This document shows positions 8,450 to 26,643 of a stretch of 45,520 nt of DNA, one piece after another. The stretch's first letter is position 1. Each line of letters starts with the position of its first letter. The DNA is taken from the IMG/VR virus record IMGVR_UViG_2579778748_000005; one strand, 5' to 3'. The DNA comes from a virus (Duplodnaviria; Heunggongvirae; Uroviricota; Caudoviricetes). The notes beneath the pieces were generated by a model. That model did no database searches, had not been told where the DNA came from, and saw nothing but the letters and a program-made list of their open reading frames with translations. The position numbers and the translations under genes were made by a program.

Positions 8450-8745
8450 TTCTTACCCCTGAATACGTTAAGCATCTTTTTTATTTCCTGAATATTGGCG
8501 CGTGCTTTCTCCCTGCTGGTGGGCACGTTACGCGGTACGGCCTGCACCAGAGAAAAATCACGATCGAACTGATAAACAGGCATCACGCAATCATATTCGT
8601 AGCCTTCACGACGGTAGGTTACGCGCCGTTCCTCCACGCCCTTAATCATTACCGTGCCGCCGTACTGGTCGCGGTAAATATCACCGCGCATGAATTTAGT
8701 GCGAGTTTTGCCACTGGCAGTTAAGCCAGAATATTTAAGTTTCAT
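8446..8745 (-). CDS. Hypothetical protein, 99 aa, coupled to primase
   Basis: GGAGA SD; stop overlaps the primase start (ATGA). Confidence 0.6.
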   Translation of the reverse strand: MKLKYSGLTASGKTRTKFMRGDIYRDQYGGTVMIKGVEERRVTYRREGYEYDCVMPVYQFDRDFSLVQAVPRNVPTSREKARANIQEIKKMLNVFRGKK

Positions 8746-8750
8746 TATTT

Positions 8751-8978
8751 TTATTCTCCGGTGTGGGGCGCTTTATTATTCTCGTGAATTGCCATAGCCT
8801 TATTGAGTTCATCAATAACAGGTGTCAATAATGTCTGAACAGCGGCAAACATTAATGATGAATGATCTTCGCCACCTTCCGGCACTTCAATTAATTTAAT
8901 TAACAACGCATTCATTTCGCGTGCTTTAATTAATGCGTTTTCAGAGTGGATTAATACTTCAAAAGGGATTTTATGCAT
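8751..8978 (-). CDS. Hypothetical protein, 75 aa
   Basis: ATG at 8978 with GGGAGA SD; AT-rich coding DNA. Confidence 0.5.
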   Translation of the reverse strand: MHKIPFEVLIHSENALIKAREMNALLIKLIEVPEGGEDHSSLMFAAVQTLLTPVIDELNKAMAIHENNKAPHTGE

Positions 8979-9201
8979 CACAAATTTTCTCCCTTATTCT
9001 TTTAATGTCCTCATTAAGGATGTCTGTAACTTTTATCAGCGAGTTTTTGGCAATTATTTTTATTGTTTTAAGTTTTCTTTTGTCGTGCTCCGACTGTGAT
9101 TTTCTCTCCATAATCTCCACCATGTGGGTAACATCAACGAGCGCACGTATCAGTATTTGCATTGCTTCTTCTGCTGCGTCCGGTGTGGTTTTATTGTGCA
9201 T
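8971..9201 (-). CDS. Hypothetical protein, 76 aa
   Basis: ATG at 9201 with AGGGAGA SD; overlaps the next gene by 8 nt. Confidence 0.5.
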   Translation of the reverse strand: MHNKTTPDAAEEAMQILIRALVDVTHMVEIMERKSQSEHDKRKLKTIKIIAKNSLIKVTDILNEDIKRIREKICDA

Positions 9202-9243
9202 AGGTTTCTCCCTGGCGGATTTTTGCAGCGAATACAGCAACAC

Positions 9244-9584
9244 AACCGGACGGGCAACGGCTACGCGCTTCGCGTTCCGTCCAGGCGGTTACGTGGATGA
9301 TTTGAGATTCTCCGGCACTCAGGGCCAGAAAACGCCACACAAAGGCCGTTTGTGTGTGTACAAGGTGTGGTATATGATTTACAGCAACCATAAATTTTTC
9401 CTCTCTATAGTGTTTGTGGTTAGACGCCCCGTATGTGTTTCCGGCACTGCGGGGCGTTGCTCTTTGTATTTCAACAATCCTTTCGGTGTGTTTCATGTTA
9501 TGAGCGCATGAAACACACGTCAAGGCTTTTTGTATTTCTTTTTTTGTGTATACTGAAACACACCGATGATTAGGAGTTTCAGAA
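9244..9584. promoter_or_regulatory. Divergent control region with a 12-bp perfect inverted repeat GTGTGTTTCATG-N9-CATGAAACACAC (9486..9518) and extra GAAACACAC half-sites
   Basis: Palindrome and half-sites (9553..9562, about 9345..9360) seen directly between the minus-strand operon and the plus-strand RHH gene. Confidence 0.5.
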
Positions 9585-9890
9585 ATGGCAACGTCTAACA
9601 AAAACGCAAAATCACAACTGACAACTGTCAGAGTCCCACTAGATGTTATGCAAGGGATGGAATCCGTTAAGCTGGACGGCGAAAGCAATGCCGGATTTAT
9701 CGTAACCGCCATGCGCGGAGAAATAGCCCGCCGCCAAGCAGAAGGCAGCGGAGAAAATCCCCTTGTGTCGTCACTGGATGCCCTGGCTAAGGTCGAACAA
9801 ATCGGCATCAAAGCAGCGGAAGAAATCGGGCAGCTTGTCACCGTTGCACGCGAAGAACTCCAGCGTCGCAAGACCAAAGAACCAGAGTAA
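9585..9890 (+). CDS. Ribbon-helix-helix-like DNA-binding protein, 101 aa (candidate island repressor)
   Basis: TAGGAG SD 8 nt upstream; TVRVPLDVMQGME...GESNAGFIVTAMRGEI fits a strand-helix-helix pattern. Confidence 0.6.
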   Translation: MATSNKNAKSQLTTVRVPLDVMQGMESVKLDGESNAGFIVTAMRGEIARRQAEGSGENPLVSSLDALAKVEQIGIKAAEEIGQLVTVAREELQRRKTKEPE

Positions 9891-9932
9891 TCACCATCAG
9901 CGCCGTGGTGTAAGGTATTACGGCGCATTGCT

Positions 9933-10121
9933 ATGCAGGACAACACAATGACCGATAAAGAATTGACCAAAACATTATCACCGGCACGGAAAAGACGGCG
10001 CAGAAAGATAGAACATGAATCAGAAAGATTCGCGCCATGTGCTTTTGCCCTTGAGCAATTCCTTAAAGAGTACAGGGAAAAGCGCTCATTGCAGGTATGG
10101 CAACGAACTGAACCAGACTGA
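9933..10121 (+). CDS. Hypothetical small basic protein, about 57-62 aa
   Basis: ORF downstream of the RHH gene in the same operon; start uncertain. Confidence 0.35.
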   Translation: MQDNTMTDKELTKTLSPARKRRRRKIEHESERFAPCAFALEQFLKEYREKRSLQVWQRTEPD

Positions 10122-10213
10122 TTGCATTGCCCACCAGCCTGATAGCGGCTATCATCCCCGTGCTTATGTTTGGGATCACACACACAAACGGCGCAGCGGG
10201 TTATCTGTTCAGA

Positions 10214-10245
10214 AAGGCGGCTCCATTTCGGGGCCGCTTTTTTTA
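10214..10245 (+). terminator. Putative intrinsic terminator of the RHH operon
   Basis: Short GC stem followed by a T7 run. Confidence 0.45.
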
Positions 10246-10390
10246 TGCCTGAAAAACCCCAATTTTGTGGTTTTCCAGTCTCACCAGGGCGAACGAATCC
10301 CCGCCCACGTTCTGGCGTATATTCAATCTTCATGGTTATAGCTCTGTGTTCAGATGATTGATGTGTGGCGGCTGTGTGCCGCCAGCGTGA

Positions 10391-10579
10391 TTAATGAACT
10401 GCCTTGCAGCTATCCTTCCAGGCCAGAACCTCGGATAAAGACCAGCCAACGGAACGACCGCCAAGTTTACGACGTGATGGGAATTGTCCGGCCTTTTCCA
10501 GGCGGTAGCGACACGTACGGCTAAGGCCGGTTAGTTTTTCGCATTCTTTTTCACGTATAAACCGATCAGTGCTTAACAC
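10391..10579 (-). CDS. alpA: AlpA-family excisionase/regulator, 62 aa
   Basis: LTGLSRTCRYRLEKAGQFPSRRKLGGRSVGWSLSEVLAW matches the AlpA HTH signature as recalled. Confidence 0.8.
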   Translation of the reverse strand: MLSTDRFIREKECEKLTGLSRTCRYRLEKAGQFPSRRKLGGRSVGWSLSEVLAWKDSCKAVH

Positions 10580-10943
10580 TATTGCCCCCTTTCGTTTCTT
10601 AAAGAGTCATCAGGTGTCTTATTGTGTCGTATTGTTCCCGCTAGAGTGATGAATGGCAAATACTGAGGATGTATGATTTACAGAAAATGAAACAGTAAGA
10701 ATAAAATCTTTTAAATTCATGTTAATACAAAGGAATAAAATATTGTTCCATGCCTTTTTTCTCGCTCTTTAAAGAGTGATTCGCTAGTGTATAAAAAACC
10801 AGTAACACATTAAAAATCAGCCACTTATAAATCCGTACGCTTTTTCGCCTCTTGTTCGTAGTTGTTCCACATTGTTGCTCATTGTTGCACGTTGTATCTG
10901 TTCGCATATCCAGTATGTGCATACTGAAAAAACACGAAAAAAA

Positions 10944-12194
10944 TTATTTTCTTCTGGCTACTGGTAGCGTGGTTACGTTTTCATGTGTTCCCGCCAGTAT
11001 CCCTAACCGCTCCGTCCACATATCCAGCGCATTGCGTTTAGCATCCAGATAACGGGAATGATTATAAACTCGCTGCATTCCTGGCATCTGGTGGCCTGTA
11101 AGCTGCTCCACGACGTGAGGATCCACGCCTAAATCGTTCAGCATCGTTGTAAAGGTGCGCCGGATGTCATGTAGTGACCAGTGAGGGTGATTTAGCCTCC
11201 TGTGCGCTAATCTGCCGTACTGCGACACGCTTGTTTCCTGTTTCACTTCCCCCAGCAATAAGCCCGTGTGCCTGTTCTGCTCCACCAGCTGCGTGACGAA
11301 CGGCAGTATTGCTTCCGGTATGGGCCGGAATATTGCCACCTTCGTTTTGCTGTGTTCTTTCGGCACGGTCCAGAGCATTTCGGTAAAATCCCACTCGCTG
11401 ATCTCCGATAACCTCAGTTCTACCGTCCGGCATCCGAACACAATCAGGAGGCGGATTAACGCGATGTAGTAGGGGGAGAATATTTTTTTGTCCAGTGCCT
11501 GCAATAATTCGCCCAGTTCTTTGGTGTTTAAGACACGCTCGCTTATATCCGGTTTTTTCCCAACGTCCGCCACACTCATATCATCAAGAACGTTGCTGAT
11601 TGCATAGCGCCGCCTCCGGCAGAACTTAAGCGCCTGTTTGCACGTCTGTAGCAAGAATCCGGCAGTAACAGGCGTTCGCTTTGCCACCTGGTCAAAACAG
11701 GCCAGCCAGTGCCGTAGCTCGCATTTATCCAGCGGCATAGCACCAATGTGCTGTATTACGTGATTATTAAGGCGCTTTTTCAGGGCGGCATAATCCACGC
11801 GGTTTTCCTTTGCGTACGACTCAAGCCAGTAGGTGAGCGCATCGCCAACCGTTACCGGCTTTAACGCTTCCTGTACGGTGTAATTAAGCTCATGACGTGG
11901 ATTTTTCCCCTCTGCCAGCCATGCGCGACACTGGGCGGCTTTTTCCCTGGCTGATTTCAGGCTCAGATCAGGATAATTTCCCAGCTTAATGCGTTCCGGT
12001 GGTGCCCCCCTTCCCGTTCCGGCCCTGTAAGTGAAATACCAGGTTAAAAGGCCACTGGTTGAATGCCTGACGCTCAGGTTTCCACCGTCATTAAGAAAGG
12101 CTGTTTTTTGGGCGGGTGTGCCGTTGATTTTCCTCAGCTGTGTATCGCTCAGTTTGTTAAGTGCTCTGCTCATAATTTTGATTCCGGTCATCAC
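10944..12194 (-). CDS. int: Tyrosine integrase (P4-type), about 409-416 aa; start probably ATG at 12173
   Basis: C-terminal catalytic region with R...HxxR...Y (HDIRRTF, YNHSRY); next to attR. Confidence 0.92.
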   Translation of the reverse strand: MMTGIKIMSRALNKLSDTQLRKINGTPAQKTAFLNDGGNLSVRHSTSGLLTWYFTYRAGTGRGAPPERIKLGNYPDLSLKSAREKAAQCRAWLAEGKNPRHELNYTVQEALKPVTVGDALTYWLESYAKENRVDYAALKKRLNNHVIQHIGAMPLDKCELRHWLACFDQVAKRTPVTAGFLLQTCKQALKFCRRRRYAISNVLDDMSVADVGKKPDISERVLNTKELGELLQALDKKIFSPYYIALIRLLIVFGCRTVELRLSEISEWDFTEMLWTVPKEHSKTKVAIFRPIPEAILPFVTQLVEQNRHTGLLLGEVKQETSVSQYGRLAHRRLNHPHWSLHDIRRTFTTMLNDLGVDPHVVEQLTGHQMPGMQRVYNHSRYLDAKRNALDMWTERLGILAGTHENVTTLPVARRK

Positions 12195-12199
12195 AATTA

Positions 12200-12230
12200 A
12201 CTACACCATTAACTACACCGATCGTTGCAC
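12200..12230. repeat. attR core, identical to 1548..1578
   Basis: Exact 31-bp direct repeat. Confidence 0.7.
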
Positions 12231-12421
12231 AAAGGGCTACAACGTGAAACAAGCTGGAACAAGGAAAATCACAAATCTGTTTATAATCAAAAACATAATG
12301 AACAATCTGAAACATTATGAAACGGCAAAAAACACTAATTGATAAAATATGTCCATACTTCACGCATTACGTTAAGCATCCGTTATAATCGGTTGCAGAT
12401 ACCAGCCTGTGGATGCTTAAC

Positions 12422-15067: not shown

Positions 15068-16204
15068 ATGGGACAGAGTAAAAAATTGAATAAACAACCG
15101 AGTTCGCTTTCACCGCTGGTGCAATTGGCGGGAATTCGCAAATGCTTTGATGGTAAAGAGGTCATTCCCCAGCTGGATCTGACTATCAACAATGGCGAGT
15201 TCCTCACGCTGCTTGGCCCTTCTGGCTGCGGTAAAACAACCGTTCTTCGCCTGATTGCAGGTCTGGAAACTGTTGATTCCGGACGCATCATGCTGGATAA
15301 CGAGGACATCACCCACGTTCCGGCGGAAAACCGCTATGTGAATACTGTTTTCCAAAGCTACGCACTTTTCCCCCACATGACCGTGTTCGAAAATGTGGCC
15401 TTTGGGTTGCGCATGCAAAAAACCCCCGCTGCTGAAATTACGCCCCGCGTGATGGAAGCCCTGCGGATGGTGCAGCTGGAAACCTTCGCTCAACGCAAAC
15501 CGCATCAGCTCTCTGGTGGTCAACAGCAACGCGTCGCCATTGCCCGCGCGGTGGTTAACAAGCCTCGTCTGTTGTTGCTGGATGAGTCGCTCTCAGCACT
15601 GGATTACAAACTGCGCAAGCAAATGCAGAACGAGCTGAAAGCGTTACAGCGTAAGCTTGGCATTACATTCGTCTTCGTGACTCACGACCAGGAAGAAGCA
15701 CTCACCATGTCGGACAGGATTGTGGTGATGCGCGATGGTCGCATTGAGCAAGACGGCACGCCGCGTGAAATCTATGAAGAGCCGAAAAACCTGTTTGTTG
15801 CTGGGTTTATTGGCGAAATCAATATGTTTAACGCCACTGTCATCGAACGTCTCGACGAGCAGCGCGTACGCGCCAACGTTGAAGGCCGCGAATGTAATAT
15901 CTACGTTAACTTCGCCGTTGAACCGGGGCAAAAACTGCATGTTCTGCTGCGCCCGGAAGACTTACGTGTTGAAGAGATTAACGACGACAACCACGCTGAA
16001 GGGCTGATTGGTTACGTTCGCGAGCGTAACTACAAAGGCATGACGCTGGAGTCGGTTGTTGAACTGGAAAATGGCAAGATGGTGATGGTCAGCGAATTCT
16101 TCAATGAAGACGATCCTGACTTTGACCACTCTCTCGACCAAAAAATGGCCATTAATTGGGTAGAAAGCTGGGAGGTCGTACTGGCTGATGAAGAACACAA
16201 GTAA
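15068..16204 (+). CDS. potA: Spermidine/putrescine ABC transporter ATPase PotA, 378 aa
   Basis: Walker [10 protein letters not shown], signature LSGGQQQR, Walker B LLLDE; matches PotA as recalled. Confidence 0.95.
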
Positions 16205-21120: not shown

Positions 21121-21154
21121 ATAAAAAAAGCCCGCAGCAGTGACGCCACGGGCT
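21121..21154 (-). terminator. Intrinsic terminator after lom
   Basis: AGCCCG...CGGGCT hairpin followed by a T7 run on the minus strand. Confidence 0.5.
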
Positions 21155-21259
21155 TCAGGACAGTGTAACTTTACGTTTCCTCAAACGCAGTTCACCCCAT
21201 AAGGCGGATGAACCTGCGTATCATAACAATATTTACAGAAGATAAATCGGCGTCTGTTG

Positions 21260-21926: not shown

Positions 21927-24900
21927 TCAGCTAATCGTGATGCCTGCAGTGGTTTTCTTCATCACAACAACCAGCAAATCGCTGATACTTGCTGTGGGAT
22001 ACCAGCCATTTACCCACCATGCTGATACAGAAAACTCCAGCGTCATGTGGCCGCGACCAGCAGGCATATCAATAACACCACTGTAAACCAGCGTATTATC
22101 CAGCGCGGTACGGTTATAAATTTCAGCACCGTTTTTCCGTACTATCAGGCGGCATGACGAATAAATATCGTTATTCTCCCGCTCATGTCTGGCACCGCTG
22201 AATGCCACCGCCGGAATAACAATTTGCCGGTCAAACGGCTGATCGTCATAAACCCTGACGGTAATGGTCCCTGATGGCCACCTCTCCGGTGCACGGGAGT
22301 CACGGGGGAAAGCCTTACCCACTGTTTTAACGAGATCGCCTTCAATCTGGTTTGCAGACAGTTTCCCTCTGATGACACAGTTCTCGTTAATGGTGACATT
22401 ATTGAGCGTGCCGGTATTCGCCGTGATGGCTCCACTGATATCCGCATTGCGGGCTGCCAGCCTGCCATCCGGCGTCAGGGAAAACGTAGGAGGATTGCCG
22501 GATGACGTGATGCTCACCGCAAACAGTCGCTTCAGGAACACGTCGTTCATGAACAGCTGATTCCCCTGCGCCACAAACAGCGGCGTGGTGTTGCCATTCT
22601 CCGGGGTAATCATCGCGATACGGTCAGCCTGCAGCAGAATACTGCTCAGCGTCTGACCATCAACATCCTCAATCCCCGCACCAATCCCGGCCACATAGGG
22701 AATACCGTTTTTTGTTTTCTGCACCTTCAGCATATACATGGCATTCAGCTCATTGCGCGTGTCTGACTGAACCCGCTGGATTTGCTGTATGGTCACGGCC
22801 TGGTCACCCAGTTTTTTATCCGTGGTCGAGGTAATTTCACTCCCTTTTTTATCCACGTACTGGCGGACCTGTGCTATCTGTCGGGCATTTTCTGACTGCC
22901 CCTGGCTGACAGTCTGTGAGATTTCACTGCTCACCCGGTCCACTTTCTGGCTCACCTGCGCGATGGCCAGTGTCTGGTCCTCATTCTTTTTCGCAACCAG
23001 CTGCGTGAGGCTGTTTTCCGCCTCCCCGATTTTCCGGGTCACTTCTGCGATATCCGTGTCCATCCGCTGACGGATGTCTTCTTCCAGTTGCGTGACCTCC
23101 GTACGCAGCGCTGAAGCATCAATGCGCTCTTTCAGTGCCTGGCCCAGAAGCGTCTCATCTATCAGCCCCCGGAAAATTTCCAGATACCCTTCACCATCAT
23201 TGCTGGGCTGCCCGCTGGCTTCCACAAAAGCAGATTTTCCCACCAGGTTGACGCTTCGCACGTAAAACCAGAAATCCGTCCCCGGCTTAATCCGGCTCCC
23301 CTGGACAGTCCACTGACTGCCGGTCCCCAGATAACGGGCAGATTTTTCCACCTGTGCCGTGTTCGTGATGCGTTTTTCTGAGAACCAGAATTCAAACTGT
23401 ACCGTCGGGTCATACACCGCAAGACGCGGGACCGCCGTTATCTGAAAATACCCCGGCGTCAGCTCAATGGTGGCGGGTTTTGCAGGCGCGTTAATCCGGA
23501 AGGTGGTGGTCGCAGGTTCGCCCTGCTGGCCGTAGCTGTTAATGGCCCGCACCGTCAGGGTGTATTCCCCCAGCGGCAGACCACTGAAACGGTGCTCCGT
23601 GTCTGCGGTGATGGCGGTGCTCACCAGACGGCTGTCTTCTCCGCTTCCGCTGGTCAGACGCAGACTGAAGCGCACACCCTTCACCACCCGCGGCGTGTCC
23701 CATTTCGCCTGTGCCAGATACTGACCGTCAGCTGCACTCACCTCCACCGTCAGGTGCTGCACTGCCGGTGGGATAACGCTGTTCAGGCTGCCTGACTGCG
23801 GCTCAAAGCTGGCCCCGTTATCCACAATGGCTTCTTTTTCCGGTACGTGCTGCACCGCCGTGATGGCGAACGTGCCGTCCGTGTTTTCCCGAATGGAGAC
23901 ACAGCGGAACAGGCGACGACGCAGTGACGGCAGGGAGAGTCCCCACACACCGTATGTCTCCACACCATCCGGCAGGGTGCTGACCTGTATCCGGTCAGGC
24001 GCGGGGTGTGCGGTGATGGCCACGCTCGCCGGCTTACCGCTGCCGTTAATCAGATTAACAGTGGCCGTGCCGGTCTCCGGCAGTGTCACCTCCCGGTCCA
24101 GCGTCAGGGTACGGCTGGCGGCATCGATGGACAGGACACGTCCGCCGGTCAGGGTCCCGGCATAGTCGTTATCACAGATTTCAATGATGTCACCGGGTGT
24201 GTGACGCAGCCCCTGTGACCCGAGCGTGAAATCCACCGTCTGCGTTTCCAGCAGTTCGGTCTTTATCACCCACAGCCCGGCACGGTGGGCCTGACCGCGG
24301 CTGGTACAGCCGAACGCGTCCATCTTCAGCAGGTTGCGTCCGTAGCGCAGTATGGCTTCCGGGTCTTCCACCAGTTCCGTGGAGGTCTGCCAGCCGTTCT
24401 GCGGGTCGGTGTAATTCACCTCCACTGCCGTGTGCCGGTCCTTCAGGGCACTGAAGCTGTAGCGGAAACCCACGCCGTTATCATCCACCACCACATCGCT
24501 GTTGGTGTACGGCCACACCACATCCGACGGACGGTCCTGAACGAACGTCAGCGTCTGGCCGTTCCATACCGGCATACAGCGCATCGCAGAGCAGAAATCA
24601 CTGAGAACGTCCCACGCCTTACGCTGTTGTGCCAGGTACGCATTAAAGGTCATCCGCGGCTCGGTCCCCCCGAAACCATCCGGGACCGTCTGGTCGCAGT
24701 ACTGCCCGATGGCATACAGCGCCCACTTGTCCACATCCGCCGCCCCCAGACGTTTTCCCATGCCGTAGCGCGGGTGAGTCAGCATGTCCCACAGACACCA
24801 GGCCGGGTTGTTGCTGTATGCCGGTTTCAGGCTGCCGTCCCAGATACCACTGTACGTGCGTTTTTCCGGGTCATAGTTTGACGGCACCTGGATGATGCGA

Positions 24901-25619
24901 CCGCGGATATGGTAGTTCACCGTCATCTGCTGGCCGCCGAACTGCTCCGCATCCACCTGCAGCCCCACAATGGCCGTGTTCGGGTAGCACTGTTTCACAT
25001 CGATGATTTCGGTGTATGACGACCACAGCGTCTTATTCTGCAGCTGGTCCGTGGTGCTGTCCGCCGTCTCCCTGACCATCCGGATGTTAAAGGGCCGGGG
25101 AGGCAGATTATCCAGAATCACCGAGGCCAGGAACTGCGAGGTGGTCTTGCCGTTAATGGTGACATCCTTTTCCGTCACCCAGCGGCCATTACGCTGTAAC
25201 TGAATCAGAATCCGGACAGAGGAAGGATTACGGTCGCCCTTTGACGTGGTCTGCACCAGTGACTGCACCCCGAAGGTAACCCGCAGGCGGTCAATGTTCG
25301 CGGACGTAATGGTGCGCGTCACCGGTTTTGCCTTCGTCACTTCCACGCCCAGTCCGGTTTCAGCTCCGGAGGACTCAAAGCCTTCCGGTGGTGTCTGCTC
25401 CTGCTCCCCGGCACGCCAGACCGCAGTCACACCGTGTATCACGGGATTACCGTCCGTGTCCGTCAGCGGGGTTTTGTTCACCAGAATACTCTGCAGTCCC
25501 TTCACCGGACCTTCTATCGGTCCCTCACCAATCGCATCAATCACACTCATCATCTGCGTGGATTTGAGATTATCCTTCGCCTCACGAGGCGTGTGTGCCT
25601 TACCGCCACCTTTTCCCAT
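21927..25619 (-). CDS. J: Tail tip host-specificity protein J, 1230 aa
   Basis: Size, position and similarity to lambda J as recalled. Confidence 0.95.
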
Positions 25620-25725
25620 ACAGCCTTCCCCTGAATAAATTAACCGCCACTTGCCATTCCGTACAGAAGTCGGATATCCTTCGCCCGAAAAGCATGAAAC
25701 ACATTTCTGCCATGCTAAAGAGAAA

Positions 25726-25758
25726 CCCCGGTATCAGCAGATACCGGGGTTTTCTTTC
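25726..25758 (+). terminator. Intrinsic terminator on the antisense strand within the I-J spacer
   Basis: CCCCGGTAT-N6-ATACCGGGG followed by TTTTCTTTC. Confidence 0.45.
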
Positions 25759-25858
25759 ATGCCCACCGATAATCCTGTTGGTTAAAACCGGTAATGGCAT
25801 AAAAATTCTGAATATCTTCACATTTTCACAAACTGACTGTGGCGCGTATAATTTCTCT

Positions 25859-25955
25859 GCGTTAATTTTTTTGTCGTGATATAAGAATAATTCCTTACAC
25901 TTAATCTTCGTAACTCTCCCGCAGTTCCTGTCCGCGATCACTGCGGGATTTTTTT
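25859..25955 (+). ncRNA. Candidate small RNA, about 97 nt, antisense to the tail operon in the I-J spacer
   Basis: TTCACA-16-TATAAT promoter (25825..25852) and CCCGCAGT...ACTGCGGG plus T8 terminator (25918..25955); no credible ORF. Confidence 0.35.
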
Positions 25956-25962
25956 ATTCTTT

Positions 25963-26643
25963 TTACCCCTGCCGCCCGATAACCACGACCTTTCCGCCCC
26001 CGCCTTCATCACGGGTGCTGATGTCCTGGGATATACGGCGGGAGCCAACCAGCATTTCCCCGTAAGGCACCGGCATCGGGTTCCCCTGGGCAATCATGTT
26101 ATCCAGCGAGGAAAAGTACGTGTTCTGTCTGCCGTTATCCGTTGCGCGGTAATCCGGTGTTTTTGCCTTCGGGGCCAGCATCTGGGCCACACCGCCCAGT
26201 ATCATGCTGGCCCCCAGTGAAAACAGCATCGTGGTGGCAGAAAAACCGCCGGCACTCAGGGCTGTACCCCATAACACCATCGAGGCACCGGCCGTGAAGA
26301 AAGAGCCCACGATGGCTGCCGCCCCCAGCACAATCTGCAGTCCGCCCTTTCCGGCTCCGGCCAGTCGCGGCACAATGTGGATGACCGTTCCCTCACCCAG
26401 CTGTTCGTGAAGACGGGCGTACACCGCCTCCGGTGCCGTGTCATCACCGGCAATACGTATCTGGTACCAGCCTTCGTTCATCTGACGGCGAAAGCCCGGC
26501 ACCTGTAACGACAGGGCACGGATGGCTTCCGCTGCCGTGTTCACATACAGGCTGAGGCGGCGGCCAAATCGTTGCAAATCCCCGTGAAGGCAGATGCGTG
26601 CCAGTGGCGGTGACGCCAGACAGAATGCGTTCGTCGTTGCCAT
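25963..26643 (-). CDS. I: Tail assembly protein I, 226 aa
   Basis: Lambda I-like N-terminus (MA..ARICLHGDLQRFGRR) and Gly/Ala-rich hydrophobic segment. Confidence 0.9.
   Translation of the reverse strand: MATTNAFCLASPPLARICLHGDLQRFGRRLSLYVNTAAEAIRALSLQVPGFRRQMNEGWYQIRIAGDDTAPEAVYARLHEQLGEGTVIHIVPRLAGAGKGGLQIVLGAAAIVGSFFTAGASMVLWGTALSAGGFSATTMLFSLGASMILGGVAQMLAPKAKTPDYRATDNGRQNTYFSSLDNMIAQGNPMPVPYGEMLVGSRRISQDISTRDEGGGGKVVVIGRQG

Follow-up and report, generated by a model that had tools for sequence, protein, structure and literature searches.

Our analysis of a 45,520-nucleotide stretch of tailed-phage DNA (IMG/VR record IMGVR_UViG_2579778748_000005, Caudoviricetes; hereafter the window) indicates that the spacer between tail genes I and J very probably carries a member of the PasB/EcOnc22-24 family, that is, the gene of a trans-acting, Hfq-dependent small RNA (sRNA) with a promoter and a terminator of its own. 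PasB of enteropathogenic Escherichia coli (EPEC) and EcOnc22, EcOnc23 and EcOnc24 of enterohaemorrhagic E. coli (EHEC) are one family, and the window RNA, rather than representing a novel type of element, is an uncharacterised, very common allele of this known family. The original prediction, made from the letters of the window, had proposed a plus-strand sRNA antisense to the tail operon and had called for a comparison with known prophage sRNAs; that comparison leads to PasB in EPEC and to EcOnc22-24 in EHEC O157:H7 Sakai, homologous and verified sRNAs at the equivalent locus, for which northern detection and Hfq association have already been shown (PMC8550237, PMC4104026). What the analysis adds is the link between EcOnc22-24 and PasB, a very common, diverged allele probably overlooked by a published survey, and the layout of the spacer.

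The spacer is bounded by a tail assembly gene I (Pfam PF06805, Lambda_tail_I, E 6.5e-16) and a tip attachment/host specificity gene J with seven J-specific Pfam domains, both on the minus strand. It had been described as an interval of 343 bp poor in open reading frames (ORFs) between genes that adjoin each other in lambda, and this description is accurate: in lambda only 60 nt separate the end of I at 15444 from the start of J at 15505, so that the window holds ~283 bp of extra DNA. A mechanical reading finds ORFs of 113 and 66 amino acids (aa) on the minus strand and of 94 and 44 aa on the plus strand, with zero Pfam or PHROG matches. The spacer is present in 1,662 of 5,426 complete E. coli genomes (~30%), a recurrence that puts the observation beyond chance, and it is unannotated every time; at the identical locus of ATCC 25922, for example, RefSeq gives a tail assembly protein and gpJ with no feature in between. 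It is also found in Shiga toxin (Stx)-converting and other lambdoid phages.

Five prophage sRNAs were found in EPEC E2348/69 by Hfq RIL-seq (interacting RNAs identified through ligation and sequencing; Pearl Mizrahi et al. 2021, PMC8550237). One of them, PasB (pathogenicity-associated sRNA B), is an 83-nt RNA encoded on the minus strand of NC_011601 (1466343 to 1466261) in prophage PP6, between E2348C_1436 and E2348C_1437 (northern probe AATCCCGCAGTGATCGCGGAGCT; PMC8550237 Table S6), and it was detected by northern blotting and lost in an hfq mutant (PMC8550237). In RefSeq its flanks are a tail assembly protein that ends at 1466255 and a gpJ that starts at 1466496, both on the plus strand, and by these coordinates PasB is an I-J spacer RNA antisense to the tail genes, as in the window. 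Aligning the window and EPEC spacers shows promoter, transcribed leader and terminator to be alike and the middle of the RNA to have diverged. The reverse complement of the PasB probe matches the window at 25928..25950 with 3 mismatches, a similarity of which 0 cases are expected by chance.

The EHEC members were described as Hfq-CRAC (cross-linking and analysis of cDNAs) peaks in O157:H7 Sakai, EcOnc22 in prophage Sp15, EcOnc23 in Sp14 and EcOnc24 in Sp11 (Tree et al. 2014, PMC4104026); they lie on the plus strand, measure ~85 nt by northern blotting and are 'destabilised' in an hfq mutant (PMC4104026 Table S2). Their published coordinates belong to an older version of the Sakai genome, shifted by ~140 nt at stx2B. 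The peaks fall at the I-J spacers of Sp15 (the Stx1 prophage), Sp14 and Sp11, where the tail genes are on the minus strand. This assignment is settled by the northern probe, since the reverse complement of its 22-nt core occurs once per spacer in the three prophages, on the plus strand and inside the PasB-like RNA. The connection is absent from both earlier accounts of PasB: in Table S6 of PMC8550237 only PasA and PasD have EHEC homologues listed, and the survey of PasB in Escherichia by Zhu, Shabalina and Storz (2026, bioRxiv 10.64898/2026.05.13.724894) does not mention EcOnc.

A covariance model of the family (R1), built from 11 distinct alleles with the window type excluded, matches the window at 25859..25955 on the plus strand with 59.6 bits (E 5.9e-12, model positions 1-94), and this is its sole match below E 1. 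We also selected 80 IMG/VR loci by their I protein (identity of 97% or more), a choice independent of the RNA; all 80 carry an R1 match directly after I on the opposite strand, and lambda has none. The window displays those features of the family that can be read from sequence, namely location between I and J on the opposite strand, homology, a sigma-70 promoter of its own and a terminator near the I stop.

The plus-strand promoter TTCACA-16-TATAAT that had been proposed is confirmed. Of the 4 promoter-like sites in 2.5 kb it scores highest, and shuffled sequences yield 1.1 +/- 1.0 sites when the threshold is 9/12. EPEC, Sakai and 39 IMG/VR variants retain the promoter together with its spacer and ~20 nt upstream, and across variants the -10 element is TATAAT, AATAAT or GATAAT only. 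Transcription is predicted to start at G25859, 7 nt past the -10, giving 97 nt where ~95 nt had been anticipated, and the RNA would end, as foreseen, in a strong hairpin followed by a T-run, here U7. Judging from the 83-nt EPEC annotation, its abundant form may start near 25873. The whole sRNA folds with z -2.3 to -2.8, and in the 39 variants the terminator stem is invariant, the loop changing by indels of 5, 6 and 14 nt. The window sRNA holds zero ORFs; its alleles differ by indels of 1, 2, 4, 5, 6 and 10 nt, and hence give no coding signal.

Three further observations concern the promoter region. Just upstream of the -35 element, AAATGTGAAGATATTCAGAATT (25803-25824, minus strand) has TGTGA-N6-TCAGA, whose half-sites are retained in the Sakai allele with the N6 altered; it resembles a CRP site, but its centre near -45 is not a canonical activating position. 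The -10 element is also partly symmetric: on the minus strand, AATTAT (25853..25848) has ACGACA 18 nt upstream (8/12), which on a reading of the sequence alone predicts a divergent minus-strand start near 25841, 18 bp from the plus start, and a transcript that would end at the hairpin at 25749..25726. In one IMG/VR copy the promoter is broken just after the -35 element by an IS3-family end (TGAACCGCCCCGGGAATCCTGGAGACTAAACT), which we take to be IS629-like, and this insertion presumably inactivates that copy of the sRNA.

Table 1. Features of the I-J spacer, its flanks and the island elsewhere in the window
Feature	Position	Strand	Details
sRNA sigma-70 promoter	25825..25852	+	TTCACA 25825-25830, 16 nt, TATAAT 25847-25852; 11/12
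PasB/EcOnc22-family sRNA, window allele	25859..25955	+	predicted 97-nt primary transcript
A-R-N run, candidate Hfq distal-face site	25883..25891	+	three consecutive triplets, AAGAAUAAU
Predicted single-stranded target-pairing region	25892..25911	+	UUCCUUACACUUAAUCUUCG; conserved cores UCCUUA and AAUCUUC
sRNA Rho-independent terminator	25917..25955	+	stem CCCGCAG 25918-25924 / CUGCGGG 25941-25947, U7 25949-25955
GC-rich 10-bp hairpin	25726..25757	both	CCCCGGTATC 25726-25735, AGCA, GATACCGGGG 25740-25749, then TTTTCTTT
Left module (188-nt class)	25620..25800	both	not in the EPEC or Sakai spacers; highly structured on the tail strand (fold z -4.65)
I-J spacer	25620..25962		343 bp; bounds set by the I and J ORFs
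Gene I	25963..26643	-	upstream flank in the tail-operon direction; stop codon 7 nt from the sRNA terminator end
Gene J	21927..25619	-	downstream flank in the tail-operon direction
Island: integrase	10947-12194	-	
Island: D5-like primase/helicase	6698-8449	-	
Island: single-stranded DNA-binding protein (SSB)	5724-6131	-	
Island: phage major capsid protein E	3949-5001	-	lone

A scan of IMG/VR for the promoter word recovered 120 loci, which together with loci fetched earlier give 39-40 distinct variants. Conserved across alleles are the promoter, the leader GCGUUA..U-run, the UCCUUA and AAUCUUC cores, the terminator stem and the U-tail; the segment from leader to first core, the 3' side of the second core and, through indels, the terminator loop are variable. 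Identity is ~74% for every pair among the alleles of the window, EPEC and Sakai. The window allele is the most frequent in the IMG/VR sample, and among the 5,426 complete E. coli genomes the 104-nt region of the window RNA occurs in 800 (637 records at 99% identity or more) and the EPEC PasB allele in 956. Carriers of the window allele include ATCC 25922 and other extraintestinal isolates, and E. albertii has it with 1 nt changed. The survey of Zhu et al. used blastn at word size 28 with the 83-nt EPEC query, obtained 1,158 hits and described PasB variants as differing by few nucleotides only (bioRxiv 10.64898/2026.05.13.724894). Exact matches of that query to the window allele extend to 25 nt at most, which is below the word size, so that the window allele very probably lay outside those hits and was probably missed. 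The EPEC-type sequences of our sample include the PasB-2 (C27A) variant of Zhu et al., which confirms the register. Upstream of the promoter, the 188-nt left module accompanies both window-type and EPEC-type sRNA alleles, and upstream classes mix freely with alleles. Since each of the two main alleles is found with each of the two upstream classes, recombination break-points must lie inside the 343-bp spacer, and the seed region looks like a swappable cassette.

We propose the following model for the window RNA. A phage moron (Juhala et al. 2000) is a self-contained set of promoter, gene and terminator lodged between two late genes, and the right half of the I-J spacer would be an independent, moron-like unit of this sort, antisense to the late tail operon. 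Its constitutive-looking sigma-70 promoter (25825..25852) would yield a ~97-nt RNA (25859..25955) ending at its own Rho-independent terminator. By analogy with PasB and EcOnc22-24, this RNA would be produced in the lysogenic state, when the tail genes are off, and would be bound and stabilised by Hfq, with the likely contact at the 3' U-tail and probably at the A-R-N run too. It would then act in trans, again as proposed for its relatives, by short imperfect pairing with host and accessory-genome mRNAs, presumably by way of the unpaired segment that immediately precedes the terminator (25892..25911). We infer that the window allele shares the mechanism of its sister alleles, with a shifted set of targets.

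The features of the window sRNA that are compatible with Hfq binding, namely the U7 tail, an upstream U-run and three A-R-N triplets, are read from sequence. All 32 distinct alleles have 3-7 A-R-N triplets just 5' of UCCUU, in a sequence that varies by allele, and on this basis the run possibly contacts the Hfq distal face. The stretch that follows it, 25892..25911, is unpaired in both the minimum-free-energy and the centroid folds, and Zhu et al. placed the seed of PasB just upstream of the terminator (bioRxiv 10.64898/2026.05.13.724894). EPEC provides the expression data: RNA sequencing gave base means of 482 and 1,082 for pasB against 4.8 for I and 15 for J, the log2 change of pasB in an hfq mutant was -6.8 and -2.4, and PasB was higher under the non-activating growth condition (PMC8550237). 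RIL-seq recorded 37 interactions of PasB, with partners that include yhhX, ler, fabR, the tolC 5' untranslated region (5'UTR), ftsZ, rplX, the ydbJ 5'UTR, bfpB, bfpI, perB and espC (PMC8550237).

How would pairing differ between the alleles? RNA duplexfold run against the partners gave unrealistic full-length duplexes and was replaced by counts of contiguous complementarity, with shuffled sequences as the reference. Contiguous complementarity to the body of EPEC PasB reached 9 nt or more in 7 of the 8 RIL-seq partners tested, against 2.5 +/- 1.3 for shuffled sRNAs; the complementarity is significant, since 1 of 200 shuffled sRNAs reached 7 partners. The longest complementarities cluster on EPEC UCCUUCACAUU and UGAUCUUCAUUUGU, as in the 11 nt that span the tolC start codon, in agreement with the seed position given by Zhu et al. 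In the window allele these two segments read UCCUUACACUU and UAAUCUUCGUAACU, and the runs of 9-11 nt that EPEC PasB makes with tolC, ler, fabR and ydbJ fall to 7-8 nt or fewer. The target set of the window allele is probably shifted because 25892..25911 differs from the EPEC allele; a pairing sequence identical to that of EPEC, which the window allele does not have, would define the regulon and not the family.

Several points weigh against assigning the window RNA to this family of Hfq-dependent regulators or against carrying its properties over in full. Expression and Hfq dependence of the window allele are taken from its sister alleles only, and with a body ~67% identical to that of EPEC PasB, neither the targets nor the Hfq dependence can simply be transferred. 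The clustering of complementarity on UCCUUCACAUU and UGAUCUUCAUUUGU is not significant (22 of 200 shuffles matched the peak coverage) and does not establish the seed position statistically. The 5' end is uncertain, promoter geometry giving 97 nt and the published lengths being 83-85 nt. Because the terminator stem never varies, it comes without covariation support, and a 5' stem predicted by RNAalifold shows no compensatory changes and is missing from the window allele. For none of the members of the PasB/EcOnc22-24 family is a published phenotype known.

Might the RNA, or the act of its transcription, work mainly on the tail operon instead? The RNA is perfectly complementary to the I-J intercistronic late mRNA, and it could lead to RNase III cleavage of that message, or polymerases could collide, so that J, lom and the tail-fibre genes would stay off in the lysogen or the I:J ratio would be tuned. 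A cis-antisense function of this kind would suit the position and orientation, which are kept in every copy (120-123 promoter-word loci and 80 of 80 loci selected through the I protein), and the terminator-like tail-strand hairpin just downstream; simple linkage, however, could also account for the conserved position, and the known partners of PasB are trans-encoded host and virulence mRNAs. The EPEC RIL-seq tables are without a PasB chimera to I, J or the flanking spacer, an absence of little weight, since hardly any tail-gene expression occurs in the conditions used. We regard a principal role in cis as unlikely, and it may be an additional one. Coding of a small tail-strand protein by the spacer, either the 66-aa ORF (25800..25600) or the 113-aa ORF from GTG 25941, is highly improbable. 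Both run open in the operon direction and the shorter is annotated as a hypothetical protein in one phage record, that of phage ASU11, but besides the lack of Pfam or PHROG matches its ATG at 25800 has no Shine-Dalgarno sequence, a perfect 10-bp terminator hairpin sits in mid-ORF, unrelated sequences of 85-102 nt replace the region in other spacer classes, and there are copies with a 47-nt deletion or with 1-nt indels. The trans-acting sRNA of the PasB/EcOnc22-24 family remains our preferred reading of the right half of the spacer.

What is the nature of the second hairpin? The original prediction had placed a second terminator at 25726..25758 and had raised a second sRNA from it. A stable hairpin is indeed present there (25726..25757), between the sRNA promoter and J, with a fold z of -6.6 on the plus and -5.3 on the minus strand and with T-runs on both strands; our guess is that it is not in the terminator consensus scan because its upstream A-run pairs with the T-run. 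Three length classes, 188, 85/86 and ~95 nt, describe the segment from J to the sRNA promoter, each with a GC-rich hairpin at the equivalent place. In the short classes the hairpins (CAGGCAYCC..GGRUGCCUG) have the U-run UUGUUUUUGUG on the tail-operon strand only; at one position of the stem a C-G pair has been replaced by U-A, a compensatory change; three variants hold the stem through G-U pairs that are possible only on the tail strand, and one variant has the opposite strand preference, at the loop-closing pair. Lambda carries in its 60-nt gap the hairpin AAACCGCC-UGCG-GGCGGUUU followed by UUGUCAUUU (J02459, about 15461-15492), upstream of the J ribosome-binding site. The place before that site and the tail-strand U-run are common to lambda, the window and the short classes; the lambda sequence is unrelated, and the window hairpin differs also in its T-run on the opposite strand. 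Because lambda and the other classes have a counterpart, 25726..25757 is an old tail-strand element of the I-J junction, and the sRNA cassette occupies the interval from the end of I to it. We know of no established function for the lambda hairpin; the presence of unrelated but equivalent hairpins in all spacer classes examined suggests a conserved role for a terminator-like element before J. A palindromic-pattern scan of genome contigs for the left-module hairpin matched 58 unrelated bacterial hairpins and was discarded, the only relevant result being E. albertii.

A second plus-strand sRNA of ~70 nt (~25687..25757), running from a weak TTGCCA-18-TATCCT promoter (25651..25680) to this hairpin, has a slim chance of being real. 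The promoter-like site scores 9/12 and stands ~45 nt upstream of the hairpin, but sites of that score arise by chance about once per 2.5 kb. The hairpin offers a good plus-strand T-run, and the 79-nt stretch folds into two hairpins (z -6.6); those of the 85/86-nt class, Sakai and lambda, however, have the U-run on the tail-operon strand only, and the three variants with tail-strand-specific G-U pairs argue in the same direction. The left module occurs almost unchanged in 1,446 genomes (at least 99% identical in 1,442 of 1,451 records), a near-invariance that leaves its conservation uninformative. Published Hfq peaks and chimeras are absent from this place: the Hfq-CRAC list has no such peak in Sakai, whose carriage of the left module is not established, and the EPEC supplementary tables hold no feature in the spacer outside PasB and none antisense to PasB, in a spacer without the left module. 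The second terminator thus stands as a hairpin and falls as evidence for a second sRNA. A wider proposal would have the spacer hold more than one known sRNA: the window allele would be a re-targeted paralogue with a regulon of its own, as common as canonical PasB and dominant in extraintestinal E. coli lineages and E. albertii, and the almost invariant 181-nt left module, with its bidirectional terminator, would make a second small transcript, either the plus-strand 70-mer or a tail-strand RNA from a bidirectional PasB promoter to the hairpin, forming a two-RNA cassette before J. We consider this combination improbable and favour a single sRNA gene of the PasB/EcOnc22-24 family.

What is the relevance of this locus? 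It is unannotated in RefSeq and the family has no Rfam model, yet ~30% of the complete genomes of E. coli carry some allele. Should the regulons differ from allele to allele, otherwise similar lambdoid prophages would alter post-transcriptional control of the host in different ways in different pathotypes.

Two other parts of the window deserve mention. An island of ~10.9 kb (1470-12344), absent from ATCC 25922, lies between phoQ (1..1461) and roxA; with the genes listed in Table 1 it looks like a phage-inducible chromosomal island (PICI) or a capsid-forming PICI-type phage satellite, ~6 kb from the lambdoid prophage. Downstream of the lom-like gene, at 21123-21176 on the minus strand, is a hairpin (GCCCGUGGC..GCGGGC plus U7) that R1 matches by terminator shape only (11.1 bits, E 1.6) and that we class as an ordinary terminator.

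Searches for other known systems gave little. Rfam returned 0 matches for the whole window at the gathering score, and for 25400..26200 at E<=10 the best scores were at most 19.6 bits against cut-offs of 39-315 (AgvB, AsxR, Esr41, STnc100, IsrG, DicF and others); a literal search of the literature for the terminator sequence had zero matches. HnrS (EcOnc10-12) was rejected for its different locus, as was svsR (co293-like, prophage NC-SV; similar strains), which sits at the 3' end of cI and not in the tail operon. EcOnc36 in Sp5 is not a further copy, since it lies inside a large gene of a short-tailed Stx2 phage and not in an I-J spacer. The earlier allusion to anti-sRNAs of the AgvB/AsxR type (RF02702, RF02703) was likewise not upheld. 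Those RNAs are also Hfq-bound prophage sRNAs, convergent to late transcription at an insertion-tolerant site, but they are 51-60 nt long, lie downstream of PR'/Q by moron genes such as stx2 and are unrelated in sequence, whereas the window RNA measures ~97 nt, is located in the tail module and matches no Rfam family. A sponge activity of PasB is, to our knowledge, neither known nor predicted.

The closest known systems are the sister alleles themselves. EPEC PasB has a near-identical promoter, the same leader GCGUUA..U-run and the same terminator stem and U7, and in both RNAs an A-R-N run is followed by a UCCUU..AUCUUC single-stranded stretch. The two differ in identity (~74% overall, ~67% in the body), in the terminator loop, which is 5 nt longer in the window, and in the upstream module, 188 nt in the window and 86 nt in EPEC. 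EcOnc22-24 agree with the window in locus, strand and architecture and represent a third allele of the family, likewise ~74% identical, with the -10 element AATAAT and a shorter 5' part (91 nt predicted). As in a moron, extra DNA with its own promoter and terminator stands between genes that are 60 nt apart in lambda and, by analogy with the sister alleles, would be expressed in the lysogen; it departs from that scheme in carrying a non-coding RNA and in its orientation, which is opposite to that of the late operon.

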